Source: Psammoneis japonica (Eukaryota). From it: a DNA stretch of 64,000 nucleotides. Below are positions 7,461-58,622 of this stretch, in pieces (the stretch's first letter is position 1; the number at the start of each line of letters is the position of its first letter). The notes beneath the pieces were generated by a model. The model made no database searches, was not told the DNA's origin, and saw only the letters and a program-made list of their open reading frames with translations. The stretch spans positions 1-64,000 of the forward strand of contig QPGO01000202.1 in NCBI GenBank assembly GCA_008632985.1, given 5' to 3'. Made by a program: the position numbers and the translations under genes.

Positions 7461-7462
7461 CA

Positions 7463-21698: not shown

Positions 21699-22087
21699 GA
21701 CGCGTTCCAGGTCTAGGTGGGACCTCGCACTGCTGAACTGTGACATCGACAGTTTTTTGAATCGCGTCGTATGTCGCTCACGTACATTTCTACGTGATTT
21801 TGGCGAAATTTTGCATCATTTTATAGTGCAATTATCAGGCGATCCATTCAACAACTTTTAACATTTTTTTCTTCTACGCCATTCTCGAGTGTCTTAAGAA
21901 TGGCGTAGGGCAGGCGCATTGTCCAAAACTTCGAGTACGAACAGAGATGCATGCACTGCAAGCTTGGCCGTTTATTTTGTGTCGAAGATAAATATATCCA
22001 TTAACCAGAGTACGAACTACAGAGCTCGCACGTAGAATTCTACGGGGCAAATGTCACAAAAAGTCCCACCTAGGACTGGAACCCGTC
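21699..22087 (+). mobile_element. MITE copy 1 (389 bp), ~25-bp TIRs, 4-bp TSD ACCA
   Basis: gacgcgttccaggtctaggtgggac ... gtcccacctaggactggaacccgtc, flanked by acca on both sides. TA-rich. Confidence 0.95.
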
Positions 22088-22503: not shown

Positions 22504-22895
22504 AACGCGTTCCAGCCCCAGGCAGGACTCCGTGTGACATTGGGCCCGCAGAACTCTGCATGCGAGCTCCGCATTACGAGAATTTAATCAATGGACACAT
22601 TTGTCTTCAACATCAAACAAACGGCCAAGTTTGTGGTGCAATTGTGCCTCTTGCCACTCGACGTTTTTGCAGGCGCGCCTGCCCTGCGCGATTCTCAAGA
22701 CATTGTAGAATCGCACTGTGACAAAAAATGTCAAAAGTTGTTGGACAGATCGCTCAATGAGTGCACCGTAAAACATGACACAAAATGTAGAAAAAATCAC
22801 GTAGAAACACACGTGCACGAAATGCGACGTGATTCAAAAAACTGTCGATGTCACAGTTCAGCAGTGCGAGGTCCCACCTGGACCTGGAACACGTC
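22504..22895 (-). mobile_element. MITE copy 2 (392 bp, inverted, partly mutated), TSD AATC
   Basis: Reverse complement of copy 3, flanked by aatc on both sides. Many TA sites have become CA/TG. Confidence 0.92.
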
Positions 22896-22928
22896 AATCA
22901 CACCCAAGAACGCCCCATCCACCATCAC

Positions 22929-24558: not shown

Positions 24559-26030
24559 TGCGCAACTGGGCACACTTACAACGACGACAATGCACCCAAT
24601 GCAGAAGATTCTCTGTCTGCCACCAACAACAACAAACAATGTCGACATTCCACGAAAACCCAGCAAGATCTGCGTGCGTTTGCCATGACCCTCAATCGTG
24701 CTGTTCCACACGCAAACACGTCACACTGCCTTCAAGATCCAGACTCCAAATTGCTCAATGTGACAGACTCCAATGTGACAACTTTTCAGAAACGTGTCTG
24801 CATTCAACATGCAACAATGTGCATCACACAATGATCAACCACGAGCAAAAACATTCTGCGACACTGCCCCAAACTCGACATGAAACATCTGGCACAACGG
24901 TGATCCACGTCACTGTGCTCGGTGCCATCTGCACTCAATGATGGTCACAACGTCACAACCGTCTGACTGTCCACCAACACAACCCACGCACACACCGCAC
25001 ACACAACATCACACACCACACACGGGCATGCACAGGTGCAACCATTGGCAGCTGCACGTGCGTCGAAGCACATGCATTCACACTGTGCAGCACCGACCTG
25101 CACCAACACATGAACAGACAAGTGGCCAATGCTCCCCACAGGCCTGGTTCTTGCCGCAAAGCTGGGGTTCGCTCATTTCCGGTGCATCGCGCACCAAGGA
25201 TTTGCAAGTCTGTCAGGATGTGCAAGTTCCAGTGCAAATCCACATGAGAGCCTGTTGCCACGCGTGGTGCGAACACCTGCTGGATTTTGCGGAGCTCTGC
25301 GTTGGGCTTCTGATGGGATGAACTTGACATTAAATTTTGTAAAAATGTGTTGATGACTTTCATTTCCAGAAGTGTTCAAAAGTTCTGATGGAAGAATGAC
25401 AGTCGCCATTTTTCCAGAACTTTTGCTTTCCACACATGTCTGTAATTTTAAACGCATTTGCACAAAATGACATCAGAGTTCACACCGTCAAGATTGCTTG
25501 GAGACTCGTCGCCGAGCATGGCAACACACGTTCTGCACACCGGCAGCTTGTGCATCCTGGTGGACTTAGGGCCCCATGTGCACAAATCCTTGTCCGCACG
25601 CACATGCAGTGCCCCACGTGTTTTTGGACATTTTCAATGACTTTGAAACTGTGGAACACTTGAGGGTCGTGCACTGGAGTTTTTGACCCCCAGACCCATT
25701 TTAATGCACGCCCACATGTCTGTGGAATGCATTGAAATGCCAACGGTCCAAATCAGGTCGCGCCCAGCATGTCAAAACTGTCCCACAATTTCGGTTGCTC
25801 GCTGATCAAAGAAATGAGGCACAACATTAATTGTTTCAACAATTGTGCACATTTCAATGATCACACCCAAAACTCACACCTCATCTTCCGAAAAAACCGC
25901 CAGAGCTCACCCCCCATCCCCCCCCCCCCCATGGAATGAGCAGAATCTCAGCTTTCCATCAATGTGTCGCATGTGGGGCAGTTGTGCGCACAAAATTTCA
26001 ACTCATCATAAATGCTTGGGTGCACGCCAG

Positions 26031-26214
26031 TGAACAAATGCTGATGTGCTGTCACGAATGTAGGCAGTTTATGTGCTGTTGGCGATTGGTCCACTTTTGC
26101 TCATTCAGTGGCCCCAGCAGCGCAACATCTCACAACTCCAGAACCTGTTGATGCTGTTCAACACTCTGTCTTGTCTTGCACCCAATTCTCAGCTATCATG
26201 GCAGCATTTGTTCA
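26031..26214 (+). repeat. 5' LTR (184 bp)
   Basis: tgaacaaatgct...agcatttgttca inverted ends, TG...CA termini, matches 32521-32704. Confidence 0.95.
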
Positions 26215-26945
26215 CTTCATCAGAGCCAATGCGCTGTGATGTTCATCGCCTGGAATGGGCATTGCGAACGGTGCGACGGTGTCATTGCGATCGATCGATT
26301 TTTGCAGCAAGCGCCATGTTGGTCTCATGGTTGCTTGCGTGGTCACTGAGTCCTTTGTGTGTGTCAACATTCATGCATGTGAACGACATGCTCTTGGAGA
26401 CCAGAGCTGTGATCCGTCAGACATGACGTCAGTGGACGGAATGTTTGATCACGTGGATGGAATGTGTTGGCCAAGACATGCAAACATTCGTGATCAAGAC
26501 AACATGATGATTCATGCATTGAGGTCTGTCATTTGACAAAATGCATTTCATTGATCAAATGACTGAGGGCATTGTGAAGAGCGTGGATGCCGCCGCTGAC
26601 CCCCAAGTCCGCTTCCCACATCTGGTGAATCGCAAGCTCAAGGCACTGCGTGCATGGATTGACCACCGCAGGGCCCGAAATCAAGAGCCGACTGCTGCTC
26701 TCTTCGCTGGCCACGTCATTGGAACATGGACGGCACGTCTCACGGAACTGGAGCAATTCAAGTCTGCAGACTCGGATGACGAATCAGCTGCCAAAACGGC
26801 CGTGGAGCTCAAGAACCCACATGACTGGCCTGCCTTCCAAGAGTCACTGGAGACCGAGCTGCGTCACCACCGCAGTGCTGTTGCCGGAGTGCCCCTCATC
26901 TGCCTCGCTGGGGAGCATGAGGACGTCACCGCCAAAATGTTGGCT

Positions 26946-27335
26946 GACGCGTTCCAGGTCTAGGTGGGACCTCGCACTGCTGAACTGTGACATCGACAGT
27001 TTTTTGAATCGCGTCGTATGTCGCGCACGTAGATTTCTACGTGATTTTTGCGATATTTTGTGTCATTTTACGGTGCAATTATTGAGCGATCCGTCCAACA
27101 ACTTTTGACATTTTTTGTTACAGCGCGATTCTACAATGTCTTAAGAATCGCGTAGGGCAGGCGCATTTGCAAAAACGTCGAGTGGCATGAGGCATAATTG
27201 CACCACAAACTTGGCCGTTTATTTGATGTTGAAGATAAATGTATCCATTAATTAAATTCTCGTACTACGGAGCTCGCACGTAGAATTCTACGGGCCCAAT
27301 GTCACACGGAGTCCCACCTAGGGCTGGAACGCGTC
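26946..27335 (+). mobile_element. MITE copy 3 (390 bp) inserted in the Copia gag, TSD GGCT
   Basis: gacgcgttccaggtctaggtgggac ... gtcccacctagggctggaacgcgtc, flanked by ggct on both sides. TA-rich. Confidence 0.95.
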
Positions 27336-28338
27336 GGCTGCCACCTGCACTGCCATTGATGACAACCTTGTTGCTGCTGCTCGACTTGCAGGAGCTCAGC
27401 ACACGCAGGACAGGCAATGCCTGCATGATCTCTTGAAGAAGTCAGTGACAGGGGGGCCCGGATGGGCTTTTGCCAAGCCTTCCAATTGCAGTCGCAATGG
27501 TCGCACTGCTTTCTTTGCACTTGAGAGGCAGGCGGAAGGATCGGCTGCCACCACTGCCCGAAAGAACCGTGCTTGTGCACAGATTGCTGCTGCAAAGCAC
27601 ACCGGATGGGGTCGATTTACTTTTGACCAGTGCACTCAGCATCATCAAAAAGCTCACAATGACTTGTCCAAGCTTGATGAACCGGCAGCCAAGACCAAGA
27701 AGGTCTCTGACTTTCTAAAGGGCATTTCCGACCCTGGGTTGGAAACTGGCAAGAGTGCAGTGGATGGAGACCCGACGAAGCCAGCGGATTTCGGGGCATG
27801 CCAGCAGCATGTGAAGACTCTGGCGGAAAATGCTAAGAACCGCAGTGCTGACACTCGCGGGATTGCATCCATCCAACGCCGCAACAACCGGCATGGAAAC
27901 CCTGGCGGAAAGCACCAACCTAAAAAGGATGAGTCCAGGATCTGGGCAGGTCATTGTCCCATTGAAGAGTGGAACACTCTTGACGGTCCTGAGCGAGAGC
28001 AAGTTCAAAAACTCCGCGATGCCAACAAAGCCGAAAAGAAACGCAAAGCTGCAGCTGCATCCTCGGAGGCTGAGTCAGTCGATGCCGAAACTCACGCTGT
28101 TGAGAAAGTGGCCATTGCCGAGCCCAATCCTCAACCCACTGATGAACCAAAGGACTCCGAAGAGCCCTTCAAACCTGCCGCCAATGCAGGCACCCAGTTT
28201 GGACGCAGTGCACACAAGAAACCTCAGAAGGAGGAATGAACAGCTGCGCCAGCACCAAAAGGCACAGAGCCGAATGTTGCTGAACCTGCTGGCACCACAC
28301 ATTCATCCAAGCAATTCTCAAAGGACACACACATCTCT

Positions 28339-31300
28339 TTGTCATCTGCTGGAAATTCAGATGATGAAGCAACCACTGATTTGGACTCACACGCTGACAC
28401 GTGTGCTGTCGGGTCCAATTTTACAATGTGCTCTGATGTTGACAGAACTGTCGTGGTGCACCCTCACTCCGAAGAGCACGCACCAATGGAAAATGTTCCC
28501 ATTTGCATGGCTGCTGCTGTGTGGGTTGATCCAACTGATGGACAACCACACCCACTGCCAGTCCATGAGGCTGTGTTTTTCGGGGACAAGATGACTGACA
28601 CCCTCCCATGCCCCAGCCAACTGTGAGCAAATGGACTGACTGTCCACGACACCCCTCGCCAGTTTGATCTGACTGGCACACACTCTGTTTCTTTCCCTGA
28701 CTTGAAGATCAGGGTGCCATTGCGAGTGCGAGGTGTTGCTTCAGTCTTTGATTCACACAAGCCGACAAAGGAGGATTTGGAGAACCTCCCCCAGCTGGAA
28801 CTCACATCACCCCTGAGATGGGAGCCTTCTGCTGATGCCCTGGCGCAAAAGGAGGAAGCGCACGCATGTGCCAGTGTGCGCCAAGGATCAGCAAAGTCTG
28901 ATGGACAGTCAATGATGATGAATGCGACCAGGTGTGTTGCTTCCATTCATTCGTGCCAAACGTCCCATCACGACAAGAGCGTCATTGTGGACGCCAATGA
29001 CGACGATTCTCTGTGTCACCGCCTGGTTGCTCAGGCAAACGTCTCCCACAATGACATTGAGGGAGACGGGCTACATGACTGGTGTGACCCAGATGTCCAC
29101 ACGGATTGTGCCGAGCGGAAACGGGTGCATGCACTGTCGACCTCGGGTCGTGCATCGACCATCACACCCGAGACACTTTCTAAAAGGTGGAACATTGGCC
29201 TGACGGCCGCCTGGGTCCGTAATGTCTGCACACCATCCGAACAGAAAGTCCGGAAGAAAGCCCCTTGGCTTAAGTTCCCTGCTGTCAAGGGACGCTTCTA
29301 CTCTGACAAGATGTTTTCGAAGGTCAAATCGACACATGGCGAGATGGGAGGAAGTGCATTTGCCAACGGAAGAGGGTGTGGTGGGTTCTGTCCTTGGAAG
29401 AGGAAACAGGACCACCCAAATGCCGTCATGTCATTCATGCATGACGTTGGCGTGCCGCAAGTCCTTGTGTCAGATGGCGTGCCGGAAATGGCGGAAGGCC
29501 AGACCAAAGAAATTTGCAAGGAATGCAGGACACACCAGGAGGTGTCCACCCTGTGCAGCCCCTGGCAGAACCCAGCCGAGGCATCCATTCGTGAGTTGAA
29601 GAAGAGAGTCCGTGTGACTCTACGCTGGACTGGCGCTCACAGGCGACTTTGGTCCTACAGTGCCAAATGGACATGTGACATCCGACGCATGATTGCAACT
29701 GGCATGTCGGATGTGGGAGGACGAGTCCCAGAAGAGGAGGTGACAGGTTCAACACCTCACATTTTGTCCCTCTCTCTCTTCGATTGGCATCAACCTGTCC
29801 ATTGCTGCATGCCTGTGGCGGAGTTCCCACACGAGAAGAAGTGCATTGGCCATTGGCTTGGAGCAGCTGACAATTGCACTGACGACATGGCATTTGTCAT
29901 TTTGCCCGAATCAGGCAAACCCATCATTCGGAAGGATGCATGGGCCATGCCGGAGGATGACCTTAAAACTCCGGCAATCCAGATGGATCTTGCATTGGCT
30001 GATCAAGCTTTGATCGAACGGCTTAACATCCCGGAACAGGATGCCAGTGCTGACTTCCTTGAACTCCCTGACGACTTCATGGACGAATTGGACGATGCCA
30101 TTGAACCCGTGGAACCCGACGCTTCCAAACCGGAAGCTGATGAGCACACCCCGGAAGGATTGGATGAGCATCTCACAGCTCAAGTCATGTTGCCACGCAG
30201 AGGTGAGCTGACTCATGCTAGGGTCATTGCATGCAAACGAGACAGCGACGGGATTCCCATTGGTGCTGGGAACGACAACCCTGTCCTAGACTCGAGGATG
30301 CATGACGTGGGATTTCCTGACGGATCCACTGATTCCCATGCTGCTAACGCAATTGCAGAGAACCCATTCGCACAGATTGACTCTGAAGGGAATGCCCACC
30401 AGATTGTGAAGGAGACAGTCGATCACCGACGTGATGCCCGTGCCACAATGGCCGATGACGGGCACATGACGACTGAGACTGGCAGGCGTGTTCCCAGGAG
30501 GACGACCGCAGGCTGGGACCTGCAAGTTGAATGGAAGGATGGGACCACATCCTGGGTTCCTCTCAAGGATTTGAAGGAATCCAATCCAGTTGAGGTTGCT
30601 GAGTGCGCTGCAGCAAACAAAGCAGCCAGTGAACCAGCCTTCAACTGGTGGGTCTGAGACGTCTTGCATCGCAGGTCAAGGATCCTGAAGAAAGTCAAGT
30701 CGCGTCACTGGAAACGCGTGCATGAGTTCAGAACTGAACTTCCGAAATCTGTTGAGGAAGCCATGGAGATGGACAACAGAACAGGGACTGACTTCTGGTT
30801 CAAGGCCATCGAGAAGGAAATGTGTGACATCATGCCTGCGTTCGAATTCCGCGATGACGACACTGCACCGGTCGGGCACAAACATGTTGGTTGTCACATG
30901 ATCACTGACATCAAGAGCACCCTCCAACGTAAAGTGAGGTTCGTGGCCGGAGGCCATCAAACCGATCCACCCAAGGAATCGACCTGTTCCAGCATGGCAT
31001 CACGTGACAGTGTTGGGATGGCATTCACCACAGCAGCTCTGAATGACCTGGACGTTCAGAATGCCTGCTTGAATGCGCACACTGGGGAAAAGTGTCACAC
31101 TGCTGCTGGCCTGGAATTTGGGAAGCAGAACGAGGGAAGGCCGGTGATCATTGTCCGTGCCTTGTGTGGTCTCAAGTCTTCATGTGCAAGATTTAGAGAG
31201 CATGTGGCAGCTGCTCTGCGGGATGCTGGGTTTGAGTCTTGCAAGGCTGACCCGGATGTCTGGATGTGAGCTGCGGTTAAGCCGGATGGCTTCAAGCACT

Positions 31301-32369
31301 GGGAACATGCACTTGTCTGCGTGGATGACTTGCTGTGCATCTCCCATGAACCTCAGAAGGTCATGGATTACATGAGCTCTAGGTGCACGCTCAAGGGCGG
31401 AAGTGTCTGCGAGCCGGAAGAGCACTTGGGCACCCAGATCAGAAAGTGCCAGCTGTCTGACTCGGACGGCGAGACATGCTGGGCTGTGTCCTCTGACCTT
31501 TGTGTTAAAAGGGCGTTGGCTGATGTTGAACCAGAGCTTAAGAAAACTGACAGGCATCTTCCGACGAAGGCATTGATGCCCTTGAGCTCAGGATGTGGGC
31601 CTGAACTGGACGGCTCACCTGAGTTGAACGCCAAAATGGCTGACTGCCACCAAGGCCTTGTTGGTGCATTGCAATGGGTGGTTGAACTGGGGCAAGTGGA
31701 CATTTTTGTCAACAAGTTGGACACCTGGACGAGGTGCTCCACATCTTCGCATGCTTGAAGGCTCGCTCTAAGTCTGCGCCAGTGTTCGACGACACTGAGC
31801 CTGTCTTTGATGAGAGTCACTTTGCCAAGTGTGATTGGGAAGAATGTTGCCCTGGTGCAGCTGAACCAGTGCTGCCAAATGTGCCGGAGGCACGTGGGAA
31901 CAGCGTGACAACTGCTTGCTTTGTCGATGCTGATCACGCCGGATGCCGTGTGATGCGCAGGTCCCACACTGGGATCCTGACATTTGTCCAACAAGCGCCC
32001 ATCTTGCATTGCTCTGAATGGCAGAATGCCACAGAGTCCTCCACTTTTGGGTCAGAATTCGTGGCTATGAAGACTGCAGTGGAGCAAATTGAAGCCTTGC
32101 GTCATGAGCTTCAGATGCTCGGAGTCCCCACGGATGGGGCCGCTGACGTTTTCTGCGACAATGAGGCTGTCTTCAAGAGCTCAACTGAGCCAGAGTCCAC
32201 TTTGAAGAAGAAGCACAATGCAGTTGCCCATCACAGGACTCGTGAGGCACAAGCCGCTGGAACAGTGCGCATTGCTTGGGAAGACGGGCGCACGAATTTG
32301 GCGGGCGCACTGACTGAGTTGTTGCCTGGACCGAAGCTCCTGGAAATCACAAGTCACATCCTGTGGTGA
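28339..32369 (+). pseudogene. Copia pol (protease-integrase-RT-RNase H) with in-frame TGA stops and a frameshift
   Basis: Frames 28339..28626, 28702..30657, 30664..31269, 31321..31758 and 31734..32369 carry the motifs in Copia order. Confidence 0.92.
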
Positions 32370-32520
32370 GTCCCAAAAGGGGACAAACTGAGCGTGTTTG
32401 CCACGTGGGTGCGGCTTTTCCCACCCCCACAATGAAAATGCCACCCTGGAACAGGGCAGCATCAGGTTGCACTTGTCTGTCGATCTGGCCCGAGCGGAGC
32501 CAGTGTCAGTTCGAGGGGAC

Positions 32521-32704
32521 TGAACAAATGCTGACACACTGTCACGAATGTGGGCAGTTTATGTGCCATTGGTGATTGGTCCACTTTTGCTCATTTAGTG
32601 GCCCCGGTGGCACAACATCTCACAACTCTAGAACCTGTTGATGCTGTTCAACACTCTGTCTTGTCTTACACCCAATTCTTAGCTATCATGGTAGCATTTG
32701 TTCA
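32521..32704 (+). repeat. 3' LTR (184 bp)
   Basis: Same length and termini as the 5' LTR. Retains TA sites in its distal part. Confidence 0.95.
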
Positions 32705-32956
32705 CAAGCACGGTACATCGGCAGGGCCCTACCGTATGTCCGTCCGTCCCCGCCCCACAGTACGGTACCCAGTACAGTTCTTTTGATTTTGTGGTCGGTC
32801 CCACGCTGCCGACATTCTCGCTCATGGCTAACCCTCTTGCGAATGAGCGAACAACCAATTATCCTCGGCAAACGAAAAAGGAATAAAGAGGTGGATCCAG
32901 CTGAAATGATGTAGCAGGTTTCAATCGAAAACAGTGAAGAAAGTGCACCGGAATCG

Positions 32957-35321
32957 ATGGAGCTCGTGGTGGACACTGCCGCGAGCGCCGTAGCCGTAGA
33001 TGACTCGACCATAGTCATCGCCTCTGAAATTGTGCAGGAATGGTCAAAGGATATAAAAGACCCAGCCGCAAAGAGTGCTGTGGAAGAAAAGCAGCAGCAA
33101 ATAATTGAAGGTTTGACGTCACTAGCGAATGAAAAAGAATGGTTGTCGAGCCACCGCGAAAGCAAGATAGTCGAGTCCGCCGTTGTTCTTTGCGCGCTGC
33201 AGCTGCCACGAAACGTGGCCATTGACGTATCCATTCGCTTTGTGAATGCTATCGAAGAAAGCAGAAAAACCGAGTGGGGAAAACGCGTGGCGACTCTGGA
33301 TTACAAAATTGATGAGATCGCGCTTTCGCACACTCATGACGTCAACAAGTTTTTGAAACAAGCCGTGATAGTGTCTAAATGGTATGAAGAGAACAACCAG
33401 TTGCAGGACGCCCCGTATTTTTGCTTGATTCAATCAAGTGGAATGGGCAAGACAAAGATCATGTATCATGCCTGTCAGGAATTAGAGAGCAACCACGGGT
33501 GGCGGTGCTCCCTGGTACTCCCGAGTCAGATGAAGACGGGTAATGCATCGCCAGTAAATGCACACCGAGTTTTCAAAAAGCAAATTGACCTTCAAGGAAT
33601 TCTTGCATCAAACACACCTGTTGGCACAATAGTCGATCGAGGCTTTGAAGCACTGGATCGGCTCGTGGATGAAACTGTAGAAGGAAAGGAGCAGCCCACC
33701 AAATATGTCTTTCTTTGCTTTGATGAAGCCCAGGATTACTTGGGCTCATTCAACGAAACAAGCGAAGATAAACCATTGAAAACAGAGCACCCATCACTGC
33801 TTTTAAGGATCATTCGTTTGTGGCTGCGAAAGCAACGATCTGATGGCTTAAGAATTGTTGCTTGCTTTGCCGGGACGACCGCAAATCTGAACAACATTCG
33901 CTTCGAGTTTGACGACGACAAAAGATTGATGAACACAGTTCCTTCAAGGGAATGGAAAGCTCAGTGTGCTAAGTTCTACGACAAAGGATCTGAGGTTTTT
34001 CCGGTGTCCACTCTGACCACTACTATGGGTTGTATCACCAAGACGAGCGAAGGAAGCGAGTACAAGAAGGCAGTTCGCTACAGGCGCCCGCTTTTTGCAG
34101 TTTTGGATGCCAATAATGCACTTGAAGAAAAGGTGCAGAACATTCTTGGTCGTATGCTCTTAAGTAAGAATGATTGGGAGGAAAGCTTGCCTGCCTGTTT
34201 TAGTGTGCTTGCTACAAGGATGCAGATGGGCCAAACGACCTTTGCAATCGCTTCCGATCTTGTTGCCAACGGATATGCAAACCTCACTTCAGTCTCATCC
34301 AAGACCGCAAAAATCTGCTTTATGACTGATCCCGTGTGCGCCCGTCTTGCTATGGGCTTGATGGATGAAGAGTTTGCGTGTGGGCCGTTCATGGGAAAAA
34401 ATCCACATTGGTGGGTTAGAAAGATGACTATGTTATTCTCTCGGGGTATGTGTAGCCCCGAAAAGGGCGACTTTGGTGAGGTGATGGTTGCTTTTTACTT
34501 GCTGCTCTGTGGGGATGCGATACGTGGACCCCTTTCGGACGAAACCTTTTCAGTTTCATTGGATGATTGGCTTAGTGTTCTGCAGGGTGGAGGGCGTTCC
34601 ACGAAGCTCGCTAAGCCTCCCTATAGTTACCAAGTGACAGTTAACTTCATTCAAGTCTGTCGAAACTACCTTCGTTCTTACGGAGTCTGTTGGGAGGGTT
34701 TCAACGACCAAGGTTTCTTGAAGTACCTATACGAATCCGCCACCGCTTTCTACGTTTTTGGCGGCTGTCCTGTAATTGACATGGCCGGTGCTATCAGAAT
34801 TTCCAGTTCAACCGGAAGTGAAATTTCCTTTGCGCCGCTTGTCATTTCTATCAAGTCACACCACTACTTTTCACCGAAGCAGGCCAAGGAGGAATGCGAA
34901 AAAATGTTGAAGAAGGCGGTCGACAGTGGCATTAAGCGGGCGTTGTGTCTTCTCATTGTATTTGGGTCACCAACGTTGCCGGGAAAATCGTCTAGTGACG
35001 ACGAATATGCCTTTAAGGGATGTGTGGCAGACCAAAATCGTTGGAGACAAACCTGTAGCTTGTATTATTCGGATCCCGTACAATGATGCTTTTGGGCTCA
35101 CGGATTCCTTTGTGGAGCTGACATCTTGTGGAGTTGCGGTTGCTGAGTTGTTGGCGTCACATCCTTACATTCGTGCGAATGTCGGAGTGCCGGAGGTGCT
35201 TAATCCCGATTTCGCACTCCGGCGAGGACAGAAAGACACAGAAGCAACGGCAATGTTGGGAGCTCTTTCAAAAGATCTCAGAAAAGAAACCAAGCCTACC
35301 ACCGACCACATGAATGGGTAA
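32957..35321 (+). CDS. Crinkler-like P-loop NTPase with a probable C-terminal nuclease-like region; one apparent frameshift near 35025
   Basis: 709-aa ORF with normal Tyr content, QSSGMGKTK and FLCFDEAQ. The coding-like C-terminus continues in frame 34926..35321. Confidence 0.75.
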
Positions 35322-35539
35322 GCCACTGAGCTATTTGGTTGCATGGTTACTACATAGGCAACAGGAAGCAGTGTTATGTTACTATGATGGACGTTAAATT
35401 CTTCTCTCAGGGTTGCCTCAAGATAATTCTTCCAGAAGACGTCATAGTCTAAGTTGTTAGGAAAGCAAATGTATTGCATGTCGCATTGGATAGAGTTGCC
35501 GCACTCTCTGTTTCACACAATGAAATTTGCAGGATGGAC

Positions 35540-38500
35540 AAAACACATTTTTATGCTAAAACGATGATTCTTGTCTTTGCCACATGCCCCAAGAAGTTGT
35601 TCTTGGATGCACACTGGAATGTGTCACTGGCCGAGCACCCATGCTTGTGCATGGTGTGGTGTTGCAGTCTGCTTTCTTTGATGGGAGAACAGTGCCACAG
35701 CCCCTCCCACCTGCAGAAAGGGAAGGGGAGCCAACATCACTCATTGGTTTCACACCACCTGTAAACAACCCAGCTTGAAGATTTGGGATGGTGGTTGGAG
35801 TGAATGATGGGGGCAGAAAATTGTGCAAAAATTGTTGTGCAAACAGATGGGTGCCAGCAATGACACCCCCCACCTGCATGCCCACTCTCTCTGGGCTCCA
35901 GGTGCTGTGCATTTGAGCCCTTTTGATGACTTTGAAATGGGGTGACATTTGAGGGTTGCACTAGATTTTTTAACACCTGTTTGCCATCTACAAAGAGTTG
36001 CCCCATGTTGGCACCAAAGCGATCTAAGAAATGAGGCTCACAAATTTGACAGCAATTGTGTGCTGTCAGTGTCACAATGAAAAAGTGGCTGGAAAAGTCT
36101 GTGCAAATTTAAGCAGTGATTTTAAATGAGTTGACAAGCTGGTGTCATTTTGGTGCCACCTTTTCTCAAAAAGGAAAAAAATGATTTGTGTCAATGCAGT
36201 GCTCTTTCTTTTGGGGGTGCAGCCTTTGCAAGAAAAACCGTTGCAATGGTGACAGGCAAATGAGGCAGAAGCAAAGGGGGCACAAGGAGCAGCATTGGTT
36301 GCAGGTCAAAGAAGGGGAAAAATGCAAGGAAACCAATGTTGCAAATCACCCTCCCCAGCCACTGCTGCCAGAAGAAGCACCAACACCAATGCCGACATGT
36401 GACAATGATGCTGACAACCAAGAAGAAGACTTGTTTGAGATTGAAGAGGCTGGCATCACTTTGGACTCCATGTTGGAAGACAGAGATGAACTGCCAAACC
36501 AGCTCTCCTGTTGCTCAGACACCAGAGAATTGCCATCACCAGCTGCTTCAAAGTTCTTGGTGCACCAGAAGATGAAGACTCAGGGAAAGGTCACAACAGG
36601 ATGGTTTCTACAATCAGAAACACACTCAAGCTTCCTGAGGGCACTGATGTCACTCCTGTCTTTCATGCTCTTTTGGAGTGCCAACAAAAGAGCATGCTGC
36701 ATGATGGAGAACACCACAAGATCATTGGAAGCATCAATTCACACAGCAACAGGAGGGCTTCAGAAGCCAATGAACGTGGAGGGTCAGATTGCTGCAGACA
36801 CACAAGAAGATGAACTCAGCTCTTCTCAAAGTCAGCATGCTGGCTGTCAACCATCATTGCAAAGAATTGGGTGAAGACAGTGTGACAAAGTCAGCTGTCT
36901 CTTTTCACTTGTGAGGCAATGAAAGCCAAAATTTTCAAATTGAAACCACAGCCAAGGAAATCATGAGGGGAGCTCAAAAGGGGTGACTGCATGCAGTCTC
37001 TCTCCAACCCAATTTTTGATGCATCTTGGATTTCTGGATTTGCAACAGAAAAAAGTGAAGGCAGCATCTCCCTGTCACTGACAACACCACCATTTGCATC
37101 CCAGAAAATTGGGGCAAGTCAAAGCTTGCTCAAACTTGACTTTCACAAATGGCTTGGTGAGACAAACCCATGAACAATGCATGGTTGGAAAGCTGAGCAA
37201 GAAAGTTTTCTTTTTGGTGTTTCCAAGAGATGAAAACAGGTGTCCGTTGTGATCTAGATGGAGCCTGTGCCAAGAAGAACATGTCAAATTTGCAAGTCAG
37301 TGAGCCTGTCAGGATGTGTTTGCATTGCAGACATTGTTGAGCACATGTGTGAGGTTGGCAAGGAGGTGTTCAAAGGGGTGGCACACAAAGACGATTTGTG
37401 TTTTTGGCATGATGCTCTGTCATCTCAATGACTGCAAAAGATGCAATTGAGCAGATGAAGAAAGAAGAGATTCACAAGCACTGGAGATCTCACTTGAGCT
37501 TGACTTGTGTCACAACTGTCCAAGCGTGCAAAAATGTGGGCAATTGTCCAGTTGGTGACACCCCACTGGTGTTGCCACTTGAAAACAGTCTCAAACATGA
37601 CCAGCATTGGGGTGCAAATTTCAGCCAGCAGGCTGCATCAAAGCTTCCTGCAGATGAGCAGAAGTTTGACTTGTCAACTCCAAAATGACCTGTTTTTGCA
37701 TGAAGCCACATCTGGGATCCAGAGACAGAACTGGCTTTTCCCCACATGGACAAATTGTGTGGGACATGATGAAGGTGCCACAAGGTTGGAAGGAAGCTTG
37801 TCTTGCCAATGGAGCCCATGTTCACACAGAGCTGAAAAAGGAAATGGCTCAAGAGAGCAGAGCCACAAAGGGACAACAACAAGTGGGTGCACAAACAAGC
37901 AAAGATGGTTGTGGTGATGGGTGCACAAAGCTCCTTCCCAATGCAATGAGACATCTTGAAGCCAACAACAAGGGCTCAAATGACAAAAATGACAGCAAAG
38001 AAAGAAGCAGAGCTGGTGCACTCAGTTTGGTTTTGCCTGTTTGCCCCCCCCCCCCCCCCAAAAAAAAAAATGGCCAGGGCAAGGGGGAGAGTTTCCTTTC
38101 CTTCTTGGGGCAGAACACCCAGGAATTGAGGGAAATTTGGTGTGAAGGAATGCCTGAAAGAGCTCAGAGGAGGGCAACAAAAAATGAGTGGATTGGAGCA
38201 ATTGTCAAGTGATTTTGTTTGGGCTTCAATGTCAGTTGCACTGGCGGCAGCTTGTGGCCAGTTCTGTGTCATGCCAATCCCAGCCATCTTGGCATGGACA
38301 AACCCAAACTGCTGGACCTTGCCAATGGGACCACCAAGGCCCTTGAGCAAGCAACCAACAGACACAATGAAAACAAGTGTCAAATGCTGTGCCAGAGTTG
38401 TCATCTGCAACATCGTGGGTTGCCCTGAAATTGATTTTTTTTTCTCAGACTGGTCCACTGAGGGATGTGAAGTGTGACAATGTCAAGAGAAAAATTGTGG

Positions 38501-39834: not shown

Positions 39835-41308
39835 TCATTTCGGGTAATAATTGTACGCAAGAAGATACTTCTCCGCCGCCGAGAATCGGCCGCCATGCGA
39901 GTCAATCTTGACCTTGACATGGGCGGGCCCGACAATGCGAGAGGATGTAATGTTGACACTTGTAGGGGGCAATGTGTCGTCTGGGTTGTTATGTTTCACC
40001 CCTACAGCCTTCACGTATGGCTGCTTTCGCTTGTGATCTGCATCCGTCGCAGAAATCATGGCTCCTTCTAGAGACCTCGTGTACACGACAATGTCCAAAG
40101 CCTCACCAGTTTTGACTTCAACACTGTGTGAGTTATGTCCTCTCACATGCACCAGCTCTGTGGAATGACGCAACATGTGGCCAGGGCGACTCTCCAAAAT
40201 GGTGGCTTCAGTGGTCGGTCCCTGGCCACCATAGTCGCTGGGTAGATCGGAAAGCGGGACCAACTCCCGGAGTCTCTTTTCCATCGCACCACGACCAGAG
40301 ATGACCTCAACCTTGGCAGCCGTTCGTGCATCTACCCAGCCTTTGACAACCCTCCAAGTAGCCGAAAAGAAACGTGGAGCATTGACAATGATCATTTTGG
40401 ACATGGTCTCTGGGAAGCATAGTGAATCAATGAAGGACTGTTGCTTGACGATCGTCATGGCTCGGCTTGAAAGCTTTCCCGCCGTAAGATGTTCTAGATC
40501 AAGAATACAAAAACACTCAAAGCTACAAATACAGGTATGAGGGCATCAGTAGATGTGAGAATACAGCAAAAGGATTCAGAGATGAAAAAATTCCTTTCCC
40601 TACTTACCGCACAAACTCAGGATCTTCTGCCTTCTTAGCACGGAGTCTCTTTGCGAAATCGTGCATCATGGCATGCCAGTGGTATCGAATAATCCCATTG
40701 AGGGTCGTAATACACTCCATTGCATCCACGTCGAGTTCGCCAGGCTTGGATATAAACAGGACGGCTCCGTTCTTCGCATTCCCACAGTACAGCTGAGGAT
40801 ACTGCGCAAAGAAAACACTCGGATCACACCCGAGCGCATCCTTCGCCTCGGGATAAAAGTCGTGATCCCTCGCATCCGCGCGGCACTCCGTCGCCTCTTC
40901 GACCATTTTGATCACGTCCTCGTAGACAAACTTTCGCGCCCGGAGCCATCGGCAGAGCGCGTGAGCTTCCCCCTCTTCCTCGCCAAAGCAGTAAATTGTG
41001 TTGCGAAATTCACCGCCACGTTTCTCCACTTCTGTACGGAACTTGAGATACACGTCTACTTCTTCCTTGGTCAACTCCCCGGGCATACCCCACATGGAAG
41101 GCTCGGTAAGTTTGCCTTTGGATTTGCCTCGGCCCAACCGGTTCCGGACAGTGGTACGGACAGACAATCGCTTTCGCATTGTTGTGTTGGGTGAATCGGG
41201 AGAGCCTTCACCCGTTGTCGAGTGATGCATCAAGTGCTCTGCATCCCAGTGTTGTTGTTCGCCAACCATCACCTTGGGACTGCCGTTTCCGTTCTCTCCC
41301 GTCGTCAT
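39835..41308 (-). CDS. Sec14/CRAL-TRIO lipid-binding protein, 2 exons (41308-40608, 40522-39835)
   Basis: LCRWLRARKF and FPETMSKMIIVNAPRFFSATWRVVKGWVDARTAAKV...LPSDYGG. An 85-nt GTAAGT...TAG intron at 40607-40523 joins the exons in frame. Confidence 0.92.
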
Positions 41309-41725
41309 GGTCTTGCATACCCAGTAAGTCGAGATCGACGTGTTGGTGTGACCGGCTCTCTTTGTGGGATGACTTGCGTGTGTCTGTTTGTGGAAAAATG
41401 TGAGACCCCAACGGCTCTCACGCAGTACCGGAAACGCGTAGAAACTACGTATCATTGCCACAGACGTAGACAACCACGTGAAATCTGGTACAAACGATAT
41501 GATGACGTCTCTGATTTATGGAGGACTCTATTTGAGAAGATTCGATTGGTTAAAAAGTCTACAGAGGGCAATATGGTCGGTTTTGTGTACAAAATATTGA
41601 CAGGCGGACAGACACAGCGGACTGACCACTGACGGACCAATCTTTTGAATTTCCCGCCATCCATCTTTCTCATTTTTCTTGATCTGCATCCCAACTGTTT
41701 TGTTTCAAGCAAACAATTTCATACC

Positions 41726-43102
41726 ATGGGCAAGAAATCCAATGCACAAATCAAACGCATGAAGCTTCGGGCTGCTGCTCGAGGAGAAGAGTACGTGGAA
41801 CCAAGAGAATTTGTGGAGCGAAAACAAAAGACGCAGAGGTTGGATGCTGTCTTGAAACTTCAAACGGAGCTAAAGAACATTGAAGAAAACGAATCACTCA
41901 AAGCCAAGGAGCGTCGATCCGCGAAACGAAAAGCGGAAGCAATTGCTTCGGAGGAAGCTGGCTGCTCTTTTGAAGAATTGATGGAATGGTACAACAACAA
42001 TAACAACGAAACACAAAAGACGAGCAGCGCCGACGAACAAAAACTCGCCACTGCGCAACAGCTCCAGAGCAGCTCGAAACCATTGAGAACGACGAAAGCC
42101 TGAATCAAAGGACCGCAGATCTGCAAAACGAAAAGCAGAAGCCATTGCAGCGGAAAAATTGGGCTGCACAGCGGAAGAGCTATTGGAATGGTACAGTCAA
42201 AACAAAAAGAACAGTTCTAGCAGAAAAAAGAACAAGGACGGCAACGACGACGACGACGAAAAGTCCTTTCACAACCCGTACGTTGTCTTTGTTGGTCAAC
42301 TTGCCTACACGACTACTCGTGAAGGCTTGTTCCAACATTTCCAGAAGGAACTAGAAAAGGAATATACATTGACAAACGAGATGCTTCGTGTCCGACTCTT
42401 GACCGACAGTAAAACGAAAAAGTCCAAAGGCATGGCTTTTGTAGAAACAACAGACCCCGAACTGTTGTACGCTTGCCTCAAACTTCATCATACACAATTG
42501 GATGGAAGAAGGATCAACGTGGAACGAAGTGCGGGTGGGAAGCGCAACAGTGACGCGCGCAAGTCCAAGATTGCACAGTATCGCAAAGAACAGGAGAAGT
42601 ACATGTCTGAAACCGTGACAAGATGTTGCAAGATTACAAGGCAAGTGGTGACCTGGAGGAAGATGAGTTAGATGAGGGTGTCATTTCTCTATGCAAGCGT
42701 CATTCCGCGTCAACGGTAGAGGCTGCGCTGGGAGAATATGTCGAAGCAAGAGGTCGAGAAATGGACAACCCCAGTGCGTACTTGACCTTTATCATTGGAA
42801 GAATAGCATCAGAAGGCGTCACTGAACAAAAGAGCAATGATAAATTCAACAAGAATAAGGGAAGAGATAGTAGCGCCTCAAGTGGTCGAGGTAAGAGCCG
42901 TGCAGGTGATCCAGGGAAGAAACGACAGCTTCCAGAAGATACACACGGCACCATGGGAAACAAGCTGCAGAAGCAATCCGAATTCTCCAAAGCTGGTGTT
43001 GACATGAGCATAAGCAGTGAAACAAATAACGATGGCGGGAATATCTCAAAGATATTTCCTTCCATCAGCCGCGGCCGGGGAAGAGGTAGAGGTTACATGT
43101 AG
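41726..43102 (+). CDS. RRM RNA-binding protein (nucleolar-type) with three apparent single-base frameshifts
   Basis: RNP2 VFVGQL, RNP1 KGMAFVE, LDGRRINVE, a duplicated RRSAKRKAEAIA unit and a C-terminal RGRGRG. Shifts near 42070, 42103 and 42617. Confidence 0.85.
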
Positions 43103-43140
43103 TGTGTAGCAATTTTCAGTTGCGCCAAAGACGTCTTGGT

Positions 43141-44802
43141 TTATATCAACGTAGAAGTAATTGCGACCGCCTTTTTTCTCCGACCACGCTTTGGAGACCA
43201 ATTGAATCCTAAGGCATCTAGTTGAGCACGACGTGCGCTCGCTGTGCTGCCCTTCAAGTAAGCACCTTTTAGACGAATGTCTTTCAGGCGCTGCCCGAGA
43301 GGGAGGCCCCACAATTGTTCTGAACGGCATCAAGAAACAAACAACGCAAGCAGCATCTGTAAGGAACATTAATACAGCAAACCAGAAAACAGAAAACGCT
43401 CCATCGAAAAGGCATACCTGGCCACGGCCACGCATCATCGCTGCCAATGATGCTATCATGGTGCTCGTCTCCGTCATGAGACACTTTCGGCGGAGCAGGA
43501 ACCACAAAATTGGCCGGAACGTCTAGGACTCTGTTGTGCATCTTTGAATAGATTGCCGCGGCATGAACAACCTCAAGCCATCCAAGAGTCGCATTTCCGC
43601 TCCATTGAAAACCAATTTGCTCCAGAGCTGCCTGGCGTTCTGGGAAATTCTTGACGTACAGTTGTTTTTGTCGAACTGCCGAACATTTCGCACCCAGTGG
43701 AAACCCCCACAGATCTTTAGGCCATCCACTCTCTTCACCTTTGGGAACCACAAACGTCGATGGGATTCGGAGTACTCTAAAGCTGCTAGCAGCTCCGGGC
43801 CATTCTAGCCTTTCTAGCTTTGAAAAATGCCGCAAGGCTTTATAGAATTTGCGAAAGCGGTGGTCATTAACTTCCCAAACAAAATCTAGGCCATCCAGTT
43901 GTGCCTTACGAGAAGCAGCATTATTGCCTTGCAGGAAATCTCCTCTAGACCGAATTCGATAAGCGTACCTGCCAAGTTGTAGCCCCCAAGTTCCCATAGA
44001 GTATTGCTTGTCTCCATGAGGTACAGTAAATGATATCGGAACCATGAGATGGCCGTTAAGTGAGGAGTACGTTATGAATGCTTCTAGAACAAGATTCCAA
44101 ACTGGTTGAAGACGCTCCCAGACAAATCCGAGCTTGTTCAGTTCTGCGACTCGATCTGGATTCTGCTTCACGTGTTTTTGCCACCACTTCATGTCATACA
44201 CTGTTCCTGCCAAGTCTAATCCATGCCACTCACTAGGATAATCTAATAGAAAGCACTAATTGTCAGAAAATTCCGAAGGAATTGATTCTTTTGAACGGTA
44301 TCCTGAATTTTACCTACCTTCCTTTCAGGAACGACATATCGGGGCAAAATGGCAAGATCACCGTGAACGGCGTGATAAGCTTTCAATGCCTGAACGGTAG
44401 ACTCGTAGGGCAGATGTGATCCCTTGGCCGGGCGTGTTCCTAGTGTCACTTGAGAAAACTTAGGTTTCTTCGCAGCCGCAGCAGCATGCCTCTTATTGGG
44501 CGAATTTTCTGTTGTGCTTCAGGCTTGTCGGATACTTCCTTTCCAGGCACTGCAACACGCCCTCGATTGGACCTCGACTCGCGTATTCGCCGTGCTATTC
44601 CAGTAGAAACCAATGCTCCCGTCGCAACCGAGGCGGATGGTCTCGAGACAAGATCTTTGTGAGTAATCTTTGCCTGTAAAGGCTGTGATTCAACACGCGG
44701 CTCGAACCCGAAAGGACCAGCATGCGACCCATGGAACGATTCACTTCCCTGAACAACAAGCAAAAGCGCCGCACTGCATAAACGAAATCCACGAGATATC
44801 AT
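43141..44802 (-). CDS. Helicase-associated (HA) repeat protein with a signal peptide, multi-exon
   Basis: Repeated HGxLxVP...LG...LxxLGFxW units. Introns at about 44245-44317 and 43320-43417, stop TAA at 43141. Possible frameshift in exon 1 near 44450. Confidence 0.8.
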
Positions 44803-45175
44803 GATCTGTCTAACAAACTCGAATGCATATGGGCACTTTCTTCTTCCTCGATAAAGGTGTTCTTTGCTTTGTGGCGCCTATCATCGATCAATCTCAAATC
44901 GTCATCGTTGGCCTGTGGCGTTGGAGGGAGAAAAATGAAATCCCGGAATTGGTGACGTCATCAGCTCATCAGGTGAATGATGACGTATGACAACTTTGAG
45001 CCAATTGGGCCGGAGAAGATCTAACGACAAGATGGTTAGAAGTACCGGTACTGTAGACTCTAGCTAGCCCTACAGTAGGAACCACTCTCTACTAGCCGGA
45101 GAAAACAGCCCTGCATGTCACTCAAAGCCATCTAGTTGAGTTAAGATTCCTCTCGCCAAAGATAAAGTTTGTGTC

Positions 45176-46266: not shown

Positions 46267-46861
46267 CGTCAACGTTCAGCCAGATGAATCTCTCACTGGA
46301 AGTCGAAACTATGCACTCGAGACTTATTGGTACCTACTAGCAATTCATCAAATCGACCAATTCAAGAGGATCACATTCACTTCCGTCGGTTTCTTCTCTT
46401 CCAGCATCGCTGTGCAGAGCTAGCTCACCTGGTTGGGGCTCACCCCACTGCGCTATTCGCCGGCTTGAGGTTGTCGTGGTGGAATCTTTTGGTGGCGCTT
46501 CTCCGGGTTTCTTGGAAAGCTGCCAACGACGACGGCTCGAGGCTCGAGGCAAAACAATGTTGTCCTTTGCACAAACAGGACCTTAAAAGGATTCAGAGGG
46601 ATCGACTATTCAATAACAATCTCAGTAAGGTGTGAGAGCGCAACACATTTTTAACTCCTACTAGAAAACAAAACTCGCAACTCTTACTACATTGGACTAG
46701 AGCATAGACTACATTCCTTAATCGAGGAAACTGTGCTTGGGAGCTAAATCAATGCCTTTCACGAAAAAAAGAAACTATTCCTCTCTTTCAAACTAACATT
46801 CCTGAAAGTTCCTACTCAACAACGGTTGTGTCTCCGATGCATCCTCCTGCAAGACCCGTAG

Positions 46862-47927: not shown

Positions 47928-48149
47928 GTTCACTAAAATTGTGACTAAAGAAGGGCGACAACGACGTGGGAAAAAATGCGCCCTTCGTTTCTCGATGACG
48001 TGCGTGCGTGAAGTTCAACTTTTCCCGCGCAAAAGTCAAAAAATTGATTCGCGCGTTTCGAAGTCGGGCGACGGACGGAACGGTCGATTATTTTGTGTTC
48101 AGTGTGTGCGTGTAGTGTGCACCACAAAGAGACAGCCCGGGACAAGACA

Positions 48150-58500: not shown

Positions 58501-58622
58501 ACATCACACAGTAACACTACGTGAACGAAACATTCCAGTCGAACTAGCTAGTCCTTTTCTCGTTGCGCAAGGCCTTACGGTAGAATATTGCGAATTGGAT
58601 AACAGACTCCTCGAAAATCCAA

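Follow-up and report, generated by a model that had tools for sequence, protein, structure and literature searches.

The fungal process RIP converts C:G to T:A, mostly at CpA, so that TpA is created, and it mutates both members of a duplicated pair. The passages dealing with it in studies of Neurospora and other ascomycetes describe a dinucleotide-specific transition hypermutation of repeats (PMC2621366, PMC7296669), and those in a study of Mycosphaerella graminicola describe an inflation of LTR-based ages (PMC4522978). A TpA-only hypermutation, A→G and T→C, is presented in the main text of a preprint on mutation-accumulation lines of Bigelowiella natans, where it affects integrated giant-virus and virophage DNA at a per-generation rate about 1000 times background and is active in some lines only; coding sequences poor in TpA and rich in CpA+TpG are said there to show an excess of reverse transcriptase and DDE domains (Mettrop et al., bioRxiv 10.64898/2026.01.13.699255). 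A flanking-base rule, LTRs and diatoms receive no mention in that main text. Full-text literature searches found this preprint and nothing on diatoms.

The window analysed here, a stretch of 64,000 nucleotides from contig QPGO01000202.1 of the diatom Psammoneis japonica, bears a footprint like the one in Bigelowiella as that text portrays it: changes of A→G and T→C restricted to TpA, yielding TpG or CpA according to strand, in silent or foreign regions that lie beside normal DNA. The hosts differ, a chlorarachniophyte (rhizarian) in the one case and a diatom (stramenopile) in the other, and so do the targets described: viral inserts there, and here LTR retrotransposons together with one MITE copy and a duplicated fragment of a gene. 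The preprint measures a rate, whereas the diatom case is known from its historical footprint alone. With RIP, as sketched in the papers above, the diatom process shares the killing of repeats, a footprint in base composition and inflated LTR ages; it is opposite in direction, since it destroys TpA and raises G+C.

The explanation that we favour, with a probability of roughly 0.8, is that a Ty1/copia element was struck after its integration by two processes that work at the DNA level on silent repeats, an A:T→G:C hypermutation restricted to TpA and ordinary CpG decay. The first would leave TG or CA in place of TA, according to which strand was struck, and the second the same two products in place of CG; of the 13 slots at which the two LTRs differ, about 10 would stem from the TpA process and about three from CpG decay. 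The interior and the 5' LTR would lie inside a TA-depleted domain, near saturation, and the 3' LTR at the edge of this domain, beside an intact gene, where the dose would have been lower and only the most susceptible TAs would thus have been lost.

Judged by its sequence, the element is a dead Ty1/copia-type LTR retrotransposon with the following parts:

26031-26214, plus strand: 5' LTR, 184 bp, with TG...CA ends and a 13-bp terminal inverted repeat; heavily mutated, three TA left (26061, 26070, 26194)
26218-26227, plus strand: putative primer-binding site, close to the inner end of the 5' LTR
26945-27335, plus strand: MITE of about 390 bp with 25-bp terminal inverted repeats, inside the element; unmutated, 22 TA
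27361-31713, plus strand: first part of gag-pol, with protease, integrase and reverse transcriptase; four in-frame stops, all TGA
31719-32366, plus strand: last part of pol (RNase H region), in a different frame after one frameshift near 31710
32513-32519, plus strand: purine run, polypurine-tract-like as read from the sequence, one base upstream of the 3' LTR
32521-32704, plus strand: 3' LTR, 184 bp; less mutated, seven TA left, five of them at slots that are CA or TG in the 5' LTR

Direct repeats with TG...CA ends thus enclose a coding region. A set of 32 homologues, part of which have precomputed PF00665 and PF07727 assignments, aligns colinearly with element positions 1331-6336; from these homologue matches (rve, PF00665; RVT_2, PF07727) the integrase precedes an RVT_2-type reverse transcriptase, which is the Ty1/copia order in pol. 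The element's own read-through pol translation gave no Pfam family. The LTR ends and the placing of rve before RVT_2 liken it to the Ty1/copia LTR retrotransposons of diatoms, which presumably go by the name CoDi. It is unlike them in its TGA stops, its frameshift, its reverse transcriptase motif CVDD where YVDD is expected, and its lack of a target-site duplication; tyrosine codons of pol now read His or Cys. The putative primer-binding site may be of the tRNA-iMet type with one TA→CA change; the window contains no tRNA gene. GCCAG upstream and CAAGC downstream of the element offer no match of 4-6 bp, even with TA/CG changes allowed, so that a single insertion event is unproven. No paralogue of the left flank that could serve as the empty site occurs within the window. 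A contig joining 25609 to 32716 was considered as the empty allele and set aside as a paralogous repeat because its flank differs. The MITE is absent from other copies of the element family, three contigs joining 26941 to 27336 and skipping 394 bases.

A repeat search and pairwise alignment return the two LTRs as one gap-free direct-repeat pair. Counting one common flanking C, the repeat is 185 bp long. Among the 184 aligned positions 17 differ, all by transitions (apparent divergence 9.2%). These differences are confined to 13 of the 51 pyrimidine-purine (YR) slots; none of the 82 non-YR positions differs, nor does any of the 158 positions outside the 13 slots. YR slots cover 102 of the 184 positions, so that the hypergeometric probability of finding 17 of 17 there by chance is 2.3e-5, transition bias not counted. 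TA is opposed to CA or TG at six slots (LTR positions 31, 76, 109, 147, 160, 172), TG to CA at four (15, 17, 47, 88) and CG to CA or TG at three (53, 85, 91). The 3' LTR keeps TA at five differing slots (32596, 32629, 32667, 32680, 32692) and the 5' LTR at one (26061). Where one LTR has TG and the other CA, independent hits on opposite strands are implied. An earlier note on this DNA had placed all differences in 13 slots reading TA, TG, CA or CG, without indels, and had remarked on five TAs retained in the distal 3' LTR and on the opposite-strand hits; the alignment bears out each of these statements, and the strings that the note quoted (gaTGTGct against gaCACAct, ccCAgCAgCG against ccCGgTGgCA) occur exactly so in the pair.

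As a control, 21 terminal-repeat pairs were taken from related copia loci in metagenomes, after two loci on one tandemly duplicated contig (L002 and L003) had been dropped. Seven pairs are identical. The other 14 carry 149 differences, 98 transitions and 51 transversions; 58 of the 149 fall in shared YR slots, and one slot opposes CA to TG. An exact 37-base LTR stretch had no match in metagenome contigs. In the source sample the element family is abundant and heterogeneous, with 10484 contig pieces aligned, of which 1487 reach at least 99% likeness, and contigs of run X1 differ from the element at 1372 transition and 194 transversion places. Among the variant places listed, the family state can be read at one of the 13 differing slots, 26202 (slot 172), where T makes up 2743 of 10402 depth units, and at the shared slot 179 (26210).

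The direction of change can be read from conserved tyrosine columns of pol, from a MITE triple completed by the copy inside the element, and from a duplicated gene fragment:

22505-22896, minus strand: mutated MITE copy, with 6 TA where the other two copies have 22 each
21699-22087, plus strand: third MITE copy, 22 TA; outgroup for polarisation
6143-7458, plus strand: mutated paralogue (copy A) of 32836-34103 (copy B), spanning the upstream region and 5' part of the intact gene; internal polarity control

Tyr is shared by 70% or more of homologues at 24 pol columns, and there the element reads His 10 times, Cys 12 times and Phe twice, with neither Tyr nor Arg at any; Tyr amounts to 0.3% of the element protein P0001, compared with 3.1-4.8% in 18 homologues. 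The 35 private changes of the mutated MITE copy include 16 TpA→CpA/TpG and 7 CpG→TpG/CpA, and 16 of its 22 private A→G or T→C changes lie at TpA. Eight of the 16 MITE TA sites read TG and six CA; polarised by the outgroup, TA→CA/TG occurred 16 times and C→T before A once. In the gene pair, the 32 TA slots of copy B appear in copy A as TG (16), CA (10), CG (2) or TA (4), which gives 26 changes from TA to CA/TG against 1 in reverse, one copy being mutated and the other spared. In these three sets the changes at TA sites are almost solely A→G and T→C, and both the direction and the dinucleotide specificity of the process are shown. The earlier note's derivation of CA and TG from an ancestral TA is upheld, a direction other than that of RIP at CpA. 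The most likely chemistry would be deamination of adenine in 5'-TA-3' of DNA, the product being read as G.

The change is also local. The element has a TpA observed/expected ratio of 0.16, and the 20 kb to its left one of 0.10; in genic DNA at 40001-48000 the 2-kb windows give 0.45-0.66. Depleted DNA as a whole has values of 0.02-0.16, with ApT at about 0.9-1.1, and is thus near saturation; the preprint gives 0.45 for an NCLDV insert of Bigelowiella. No TA occurs from 32067 to 32559, and TA density is normal from 32560 onwards, around a boundary with these features:

32537-32714, no strand: edge of the TA-depleted domain, bounded by 32535-32538, where a site of good context is clearly mutated for the last time, and by 32714, where an RTAY site is first left unmutated
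32957-35086, plus strand: intact 709-aa ORF with a P-loop-like motif, 252 bp downstream of the 3' LTR, in TA-normal DNA

The ORF product gave no Pfam match. That the 3' LTR adjoins unmutated genic DNA, as the earlier note had it, is confirmed by this intact, TA-normal ORF. Surviving TAs are seldom RTAY in depleted DNA (12 of 208) and never in the element (0 of 29); RTAY accounts for 158 of 602 TAs in TA-normal DNA and for 7071 of 20831 in 79 unmutated related loci. The preference for mutation runs RTAY > mixed > YTAR. It bears on the gradient towards the domain edge that the note had described: the raw retention of TA is real (6/7 against 1/7 in a post hoc contrast of distal retention, P = 0.029), but its shape is a step rather than a slope, and it is confounded with context, RTAY being hit first and YTAR spared. 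The spared YTAR sites, three in number, are all distal; the two RTAY sites are proximal and mutated in both LTRs. Compared with a rule of 'A followed by pyrimidine', strand choice gave TG 17/CA 5 at YTAY, in line with the rule, and 8/8 at RTAR, at variance with it (P = 0.098). Long one-strand tracts made by a processive single-strand deaminase were considered and dropped, adjacent mutated TA sites having the same product 26 times and different products 33 times. TpA observed/expected is 0.46 or higher in all 79 related copia loci from metagenomes, a set gathered with peptide search patterns that favour unmutated copies, so the process would not be general among relatives.

It is conceivable, though we consider it unlikely, that the step is instead a junction, the mutated 5' LTR and interior having been joined, by recombination between two family copies or rearrangement of the flank, to a 3' LTR from a copy that was lightly mutated and lay next to the gene. 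The missing target-site duplication speaks for such a history, as does the abundance and heterogeneity of the family. Against it, 0/158 positions differ outside the slots, and the step lies no more than about 180 bp from where TA-normal genic DNA begins, which is what one would expect of a domain edge. A junction would make the LTR contrast one of two histories, and the spectrum would still require a TA-erasing process.

CpG 5-methylcytosine deaminates spontaneously to give TG or CA. Such deamination would account for CG→TG/CA in the element and the paralogue, and most likely at LTR slots 53, 85 and 91; neither the disappearance of TA nor the replacement of Tyr by His or Cys can come from it. 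Polarised CG→TG/CA changes are present in pol, in gene copy A and in the MITE (7/35 private changes). Copy A has lost 31 of 57 CpG slots, and 7 of 31 conserved Arg columns carry codons of the CGN→TGN/CAN type (TGA, CAR, CAT, TGC). A third LTR copy in the window can be set beside the pair:

8858-8991, minus strand: partial LTR copy, LTR positions 1-125, 78% identity, itself mutated

Across the three copies a slot holds either TA, CA and TG or CG, CA and TG, never TA and CG together; six slots have CG in some copy and TA in none of their other copies. The earlier note had taken all 13 slots as ancestral TA and CG as a double hit, so that one process explains everything, and here we part from it. 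Every difference does lie in a YR slot, and a small share of sites has indeed been hit twice, 2/28 mutated TA sites in the gene paralogue being CG. Double hits are however missing from the Tyr codons (0/22) and the MITE sites (0/14), which makes 2/64 polarised mutated TA sites overall, and a strictly TpA-specific mutator would have no target left after its first hit. At position 85 it is the lightly mutated 3' LTR that carries CG, between TAs kept at 76 and 109; the six CG-bearing slots without TA, and a CpG decay demonstrably active in the same DNA, tell against the single process as well. We regard it as decidedly improbable, somewhat more so than the junction. The CG-state test gave 3/20 against 2/64 (P = 0.085). 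On parsimony and rates, the three CG-bearing slots (53, 85, 91) are more likely to be decayed ancestral CpG than TA double hits. Given the rarity of double hits, the active CpG decay and the CG at 85, the ancestral string TAgTAgTA proposed earlier was more likely CGg(TA or CG)gCG.

All 22 scorable conserved Tyr codons were lost while 0/158 LTR positions came to differ outside the slots, which demonstrates the speed of the process relative to background. The earlier note's conclusions that the element was mutated fast and that dating by LTR divergence is inflated both stand, the second because the apparent 9.2% goes with no change at all outside the slots: where TA is erased quickly without background change, LTR-divergence ages are inflated. 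The mutated element contains an unmutated MITE, although no repeat seen is more abundant than the MITE; this is unlike RIP, and an unmutated insert in a mutated element hints at episodic action. RIP also mutates both duplicates, whereas here 6143-7458 alone of the two paralogues was mutated. Targeting would be by chromatin domain rather than by repeat pairing.

In the retroviral replication scheme a single template supplies both LTRs of an insertion; editing before integration therefore cannot make them differ. The 13 differing slots accordingly oppose an origin in double-stranded retrotransposon RNA that had undergone ADAR-like A-to-I editing and was then reverse-transcribed, with the edits copied into new insertions. 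The same signature in a MITE copy of DNA-transposon type and in a duplicated gene fragment, and a depletion that covers whole domains beyond retroelements, oppose it too, and little credence is left to its one attraction, that A-to-G change with a 5' U/T preference resembles the neighbour preference of ADAR as the preprint presents it (bioRxiv 10.64898/2026.01.13.699255). Weakest of all is the reverse direction, with CG, CA and TG ancestral and C→T deamination only (CpG decay and RIP-like CpA→TpA): the CG-vs-CA/TG and TG-vs-CA slots taken alone are compatible with CpG ancestors, and CpG is depleted in the repeats, but this reading is scarcely credible in view of conserved Tyr columns that hold His or Cys in 22/24 and Tyr in none, of repeats in which TA is almost missing and CA+TG stands at 1.5-2.1 times expectation, of an element G+C above that of its flanks, and of the polarised counts in the MITE and the paralogue.

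The hypermutation of TpA in a Ty1/copia element that we favour may point further. A tentative proposal, to which we give somewhat less than an even chance, is that diatoms have a defence mutator targeted to chromatin domains, which would convert A to G in double-stranded RTAY-like sites, on either strand and site by site, in bursts able to saturate a 6.7-kb retrotransposon before one background substitution arises, and which would halt within about 100-200 bp of an active gene. The LTR pair serves as the clock, TAs having been stripped from the element before ordinary substitutions show, and the action of the process stops sharply beside a gene. TA and CG slots need to be masked in such genomes, as otherwise LTR dating, repeat landscapes based on Kimura distance and Pfam-based transposon annotation will give misleading results. 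A local, dinucleotide-specific A:T→G:C mutator runs counter to RIP, to APOBEC editing and to the general GC→AT bias, and the only published description of one is a single 2026 preprint on an unrelated alga. The signature on transposons and on a duplicated gene fragment in a diatom suggests that the process extends beyond one lineage, and it offers a second organism in which to search for the enzyme. If the proposal is true, TA-erasing DNA editing would, with Bigelowiella, be a widespread eukaryotic counterpart of fungal RIP, convergent or ancient.

The sole pair of long direct repeats of this kind detected in the window delimits the element at 26031-32704. Its LTRs begin with TG and end with CA, carry a 13-bp terminal inverted repeat and enclose an internal region of 6.3 kb. 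The longest internal ORF, used as query, gave 32 protein matches (identity no higher than 51%), several of them with precomputed rve (PF00665) and RVT_2 (PF07727) domains; tblastn with the matched proteins was colinear, with a change of frame between element positions 1331-5683 and 5689-6336. Such homologues, the colinearity and the flanking LTRs identify a Ty1/copia-type LTR retrotransposon. Judged by its pol lesions (four in-frame stops, TGA in every case, and one frameshift), the element is dead; in the read-through translation CVDD replaces the expected YVDD. The mutated pol (27361-32366) returned no Pfam family at E <= 0.01, although it can be aligned end to end by tblastn with unmutated homologues. 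Profile-based transposon annotation would overlook such copies. A C run of about 20 bases with one interruption (25918-25932) lies some 100 bp 5' of the 5' LTR. The host is a diatom: for a nearby short-chain dehydrogenase gene the best matches with a name come from Attheya, Odontella, Astrosyne and Craspedostauros, and the top match, an unnamed one, reaches 87%. No Pfam family was found for the intact 709-aa ORF beyond the 3' LTR.

Features in and around the element
26031-26214, 5' LTR, direct repeat, 184 bp
32521-32704, 3' LTR, direct repeat, 184 bp
8858-8991, minus strand, partial third LTR copy, a third state for slot comparison
26945-27335, MITE of about 390 bp with 25-bp terminal inverted repeats, within the element
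21699-22087, plus strand, second copy of this MITE
22505-22896, minus strand, third copy of this MITE
32957-35086, plus strand, intact 709-aa ORF with a P-loop-like GMGKT motif, starting 252 bp from the element

Alignment of the LTRs bears out the claim of the earlier note that they differ, free of indels, at 13 dinucleotides, each being TA, TG, CA or CG. The 17 differing bases, all transitions, are confined to 13 of the 51 pyrimidine-purine (YR) slots. As these slots cover 102 of 184 positions, the pattern is real and far from chance (P = 2.3e-5); none of the 82 positions outside YR slots differs, nor any of the 158 outside the 13 differing slots. For a control, terminal repeat pairs were sought in 79 related copia loci from metagenomes, leaving 21 pairs after two loci from one tandemly duplicated contig were excluded. 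Seven pairs are identical. The other 14 show an ordinary mutation spectrum, with 98 transitions and 51 transversions among 149 differences, 58 of which fall in shared YR slots and only one slot being CA versus TG; the control is rough, many pairs lying at contig ends and possibly representing assembly overlaps.

Differing slots of the LTR pair (positions within the 184-bp LTR)
TA versus CA or TG: 6 slots (31, 76, 109, 147, 160, 172)
TG versus CA: 4 slots (15, 17, 47, 88)
CG versus CA or TG: 3 slots (53, 85, 91)

No target-site duplication adjoins the LTRs (GCCAG versus CAAGC). It may thus have arisen by recombination between two family copies, or have a rearranged flank; if so, two histories would be combined in the difference between its LTRs. 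However, the LTR pair lacks any difference outside the slots, and the step in TA density coincides with the start of genic DNA: there is no TA from 32067 to 32559, while from 32560 one occurs every 4-68 bp, a normal density that continues into the flank and the intact ORF. These two points favour one locus situated at the edge of a domain, though they do not prove it.

The window is a TpA mosaic. Observed/expected TpA is 0.02-0.12 across most of 1-26 kb and likewise at 36-38, 50-58 and 62-64 kb, TpA-poor stretches in which CpA/TpG stands at 1.5-1.9; it is 0.16 in the element against 0.45-0.66 in genic 2-kb windows (40001-48000). By three independent tests of polarity, TA came first. Of the 24 pol columns in which Tyr is present in at least 70% of homologues, 10 read His in the element, 12 Cys, 2 Phe and none Tyr; Tyr makes up 0.3% of its ORF versus 3.1-4.8% in 18 homologues. 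The MITE copy at 22505-22896 has 35 private changes, polarised only where both other window copies agree, including 16 TpA to CpA/TpG and 7 CpG to TpG/CpA. Finally, the genic region 32836-34103 (upstream sequence and 5' gene part) has a paralogue at 6143-7458 within a depleted domain, where its 32 TA slots have become TG (16), CA (10) or CG (2) or remain TA (4); a single slot shows the opposite pattern. These paralogues belong to a segmental duplication (6143-8857 versus 32836-34103 plus 36157-37597) comprising the 5' part of the 709-aa gene and an old TA- and CG-poor repeat. The copy at 6143 lacks the roughly 2 kb equivalent to 34104-36156, and the partial LTR adjoins its end. The old-repeat halves are 92.5% identical, both depleted (2-3 TA, 4-6 CG). 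The stretches 1-2000 and 35501-38000 are older, doubly decayed repeat DNA (CpG observed/expected 0.00-0.19, TpA 0.00-0.23, CpA/TpG up to about 1.8). Tandem repeats lie at 9732-11135 (69-bp unit x17, G+C 0.59, very strong AT skew of 0.55), 61062-61845 (unit about 170 bp, x5) and 58622-58937 (158 bp x2, 99% identical).

Ancestral TA had been proposed for all 13 differing slots, with CG as a double hit. An origin from TA is likely for about 10; about three are more likely CpG-derived. Deriving all 13 from TA needs three CG among 20 mutated states, but double hits are rare at polarised sites (Tyr codons 0/22, MITE 0/14, paralogue 2/28; the excess in the LTRs, Fisher P = 0.085, is no more than suggestive). 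CpG decay also operates independently on this DNA: 7 of 31 conserved Arg columns have changed to TGA, CAA, CAG, CAT or TGC, and 31 of 57 CpG slots are lost in the paralogue at 6143-7458. Across the three LTR copies, CG occurs in at least one copy at slots 25, 53, 57, 68, 85 and 91, where TA is never seen, and TA-bearing slots 31, 40, 76 and 109 have no CG in any copy. A CpG ancestor is the explanation with fewest steps for positions 53 (CG/TG/CG) and 91 (CG/CA/TG). The CG at 85 is flanked by retained TAs (76, 109) in the lightly mutated 3' LTR, and a strict TpA mutator would lose its own target at the first hit. The double-hit reading thus does not stand. The four TG-versus-CA slots are better read as TA-derived. 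With about one third to one half of CpG lost per copy here, loss on opposite strands in both copies is expected several-fold less often than loss in one copy, and only three single-loss slots are seen.

At 32596, 32629, 32667, 32680 and 32692 the 3' LTR retains TA against CA or TG in the 5' LTR, so that this statement of the earlier note is correct as it stands. The gradient it saw at the edge is not demonstrable: at domain scale there is a step, and position is confounded with context because surviving TAs are strongly context-biased, TTAA being the most resistant tetranucleotide.

Contexts of TA (R, purine; Y, pyrimidine)
Surviving, depleted (TA-poor domain) DNA, n=208: RTAY 12 (5.8%), YTAR 96 (46%)
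Surviving, element, n=29: RTAY 0, YTAR 16 (55%)
TA-normal DNA of the window, n=602: RTAY 158 (26%), YTAR 127 (21%)
79 unmutated related loci, n=20831: RTAY 7071 (34%), YTAR 3639 (17.5%)

Mutated sites among 12 TA-derived LTR sites, by context
RTAY (15, 17; both proximal): 2/2 in the 3' LTR, 2/2 in the 5' LTR
Mixed (n=7): 3 in the 3' LTR, 4 in the 5' LTR
YTAR (76, 109, 160; all distal): 0/3 in the 3' LTR, 3/3 in the 5' LTR

The mutation dose is clearly lower in the 3' LTR than in the 5' LTR (distal TA retention 6/7 versus 1/7, P = 0.029 in a post hoc test), but any slope inside the LTR is inseparable from the effect of context. The edge can be placed only between the mutated RTAY sites at 32535-32538 and the unmutated one that comes first, at 32714, 10 bases past the element end. 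It may be the element end itself or fall within the element, as much as about 150 bp from that end.

Because the Tyr-codon, MITE and paralogue polarities all give TA as ancestral, a RIP-like or purely CpG-driven C to T reading is ruled out. Neighbouring mutated TAs show the same product 26 times and different ones 33 times; strands were thus struck site by site, a pattern that makes long one-strand tracts unlikely. In the paralogue pair (6143-7458 versus 32836-34103), one member alone is mutated. When contigs are aligned to the window, no other repeat is covered nearly as deeply as the MITE, yet the copy within the mutated element is unmutated, with 22 TA. That insert is precisely skipped in three contigs of other family copies (joint 26941 to 27336), and its insertion is later than the mutation burst. 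MITEs are not immune, since the copy at 22505-22896, which forms an inverted pair with that at 21699-22087 about 420 bp away, is mutated and has 6 TA left. The site-by-site strands, the one-sided paralogue mutation and the deeply covered yet unmutated MITE speak for chromosomal-domain targeting and episodic action, rather than repeat pairing as in RIP or a constant rate. The chemistry could be adenine deamination within 5'-TA-3' of DNA.

The core reading of fast, post-integration TA to TG/CA mutation stands. Its signature matches the TpA-only A to G/T to C hypermutation described in Bigelowiella natans mutation-accumulation lines, where the targets are integrated giant-virus and virophage DNA, the rate is about 6e-7 per site per generation in some lines only, and adenine deamination in 5'-TA-3' DNA is the proposed hypothesis (bioRxiv 10.64898/2026.01.13.699255); the main text of that preprint is silent on diatoms, LTRs and flanking-base rules. 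A full-text literature search found no description of a TA-erasing process in diatoms. None of the 79 related metagenome loci, found with search patterns that favour unmutated copies, has TpA observed/expected below 0.46, so the process is not general among relatives. The earlier inference that fast mutation inflates LTR divergence is upheld, the apparent 9.2% contrasting with 0/158 outside the slots. A fungal analogue is Mycosphaerella graminicola, in which RIP may have raised apparent LTR insertion ages (PMC4522978). With this element, a process known from a single preprint gains another instance, one in which both the lineage and the targets are new.
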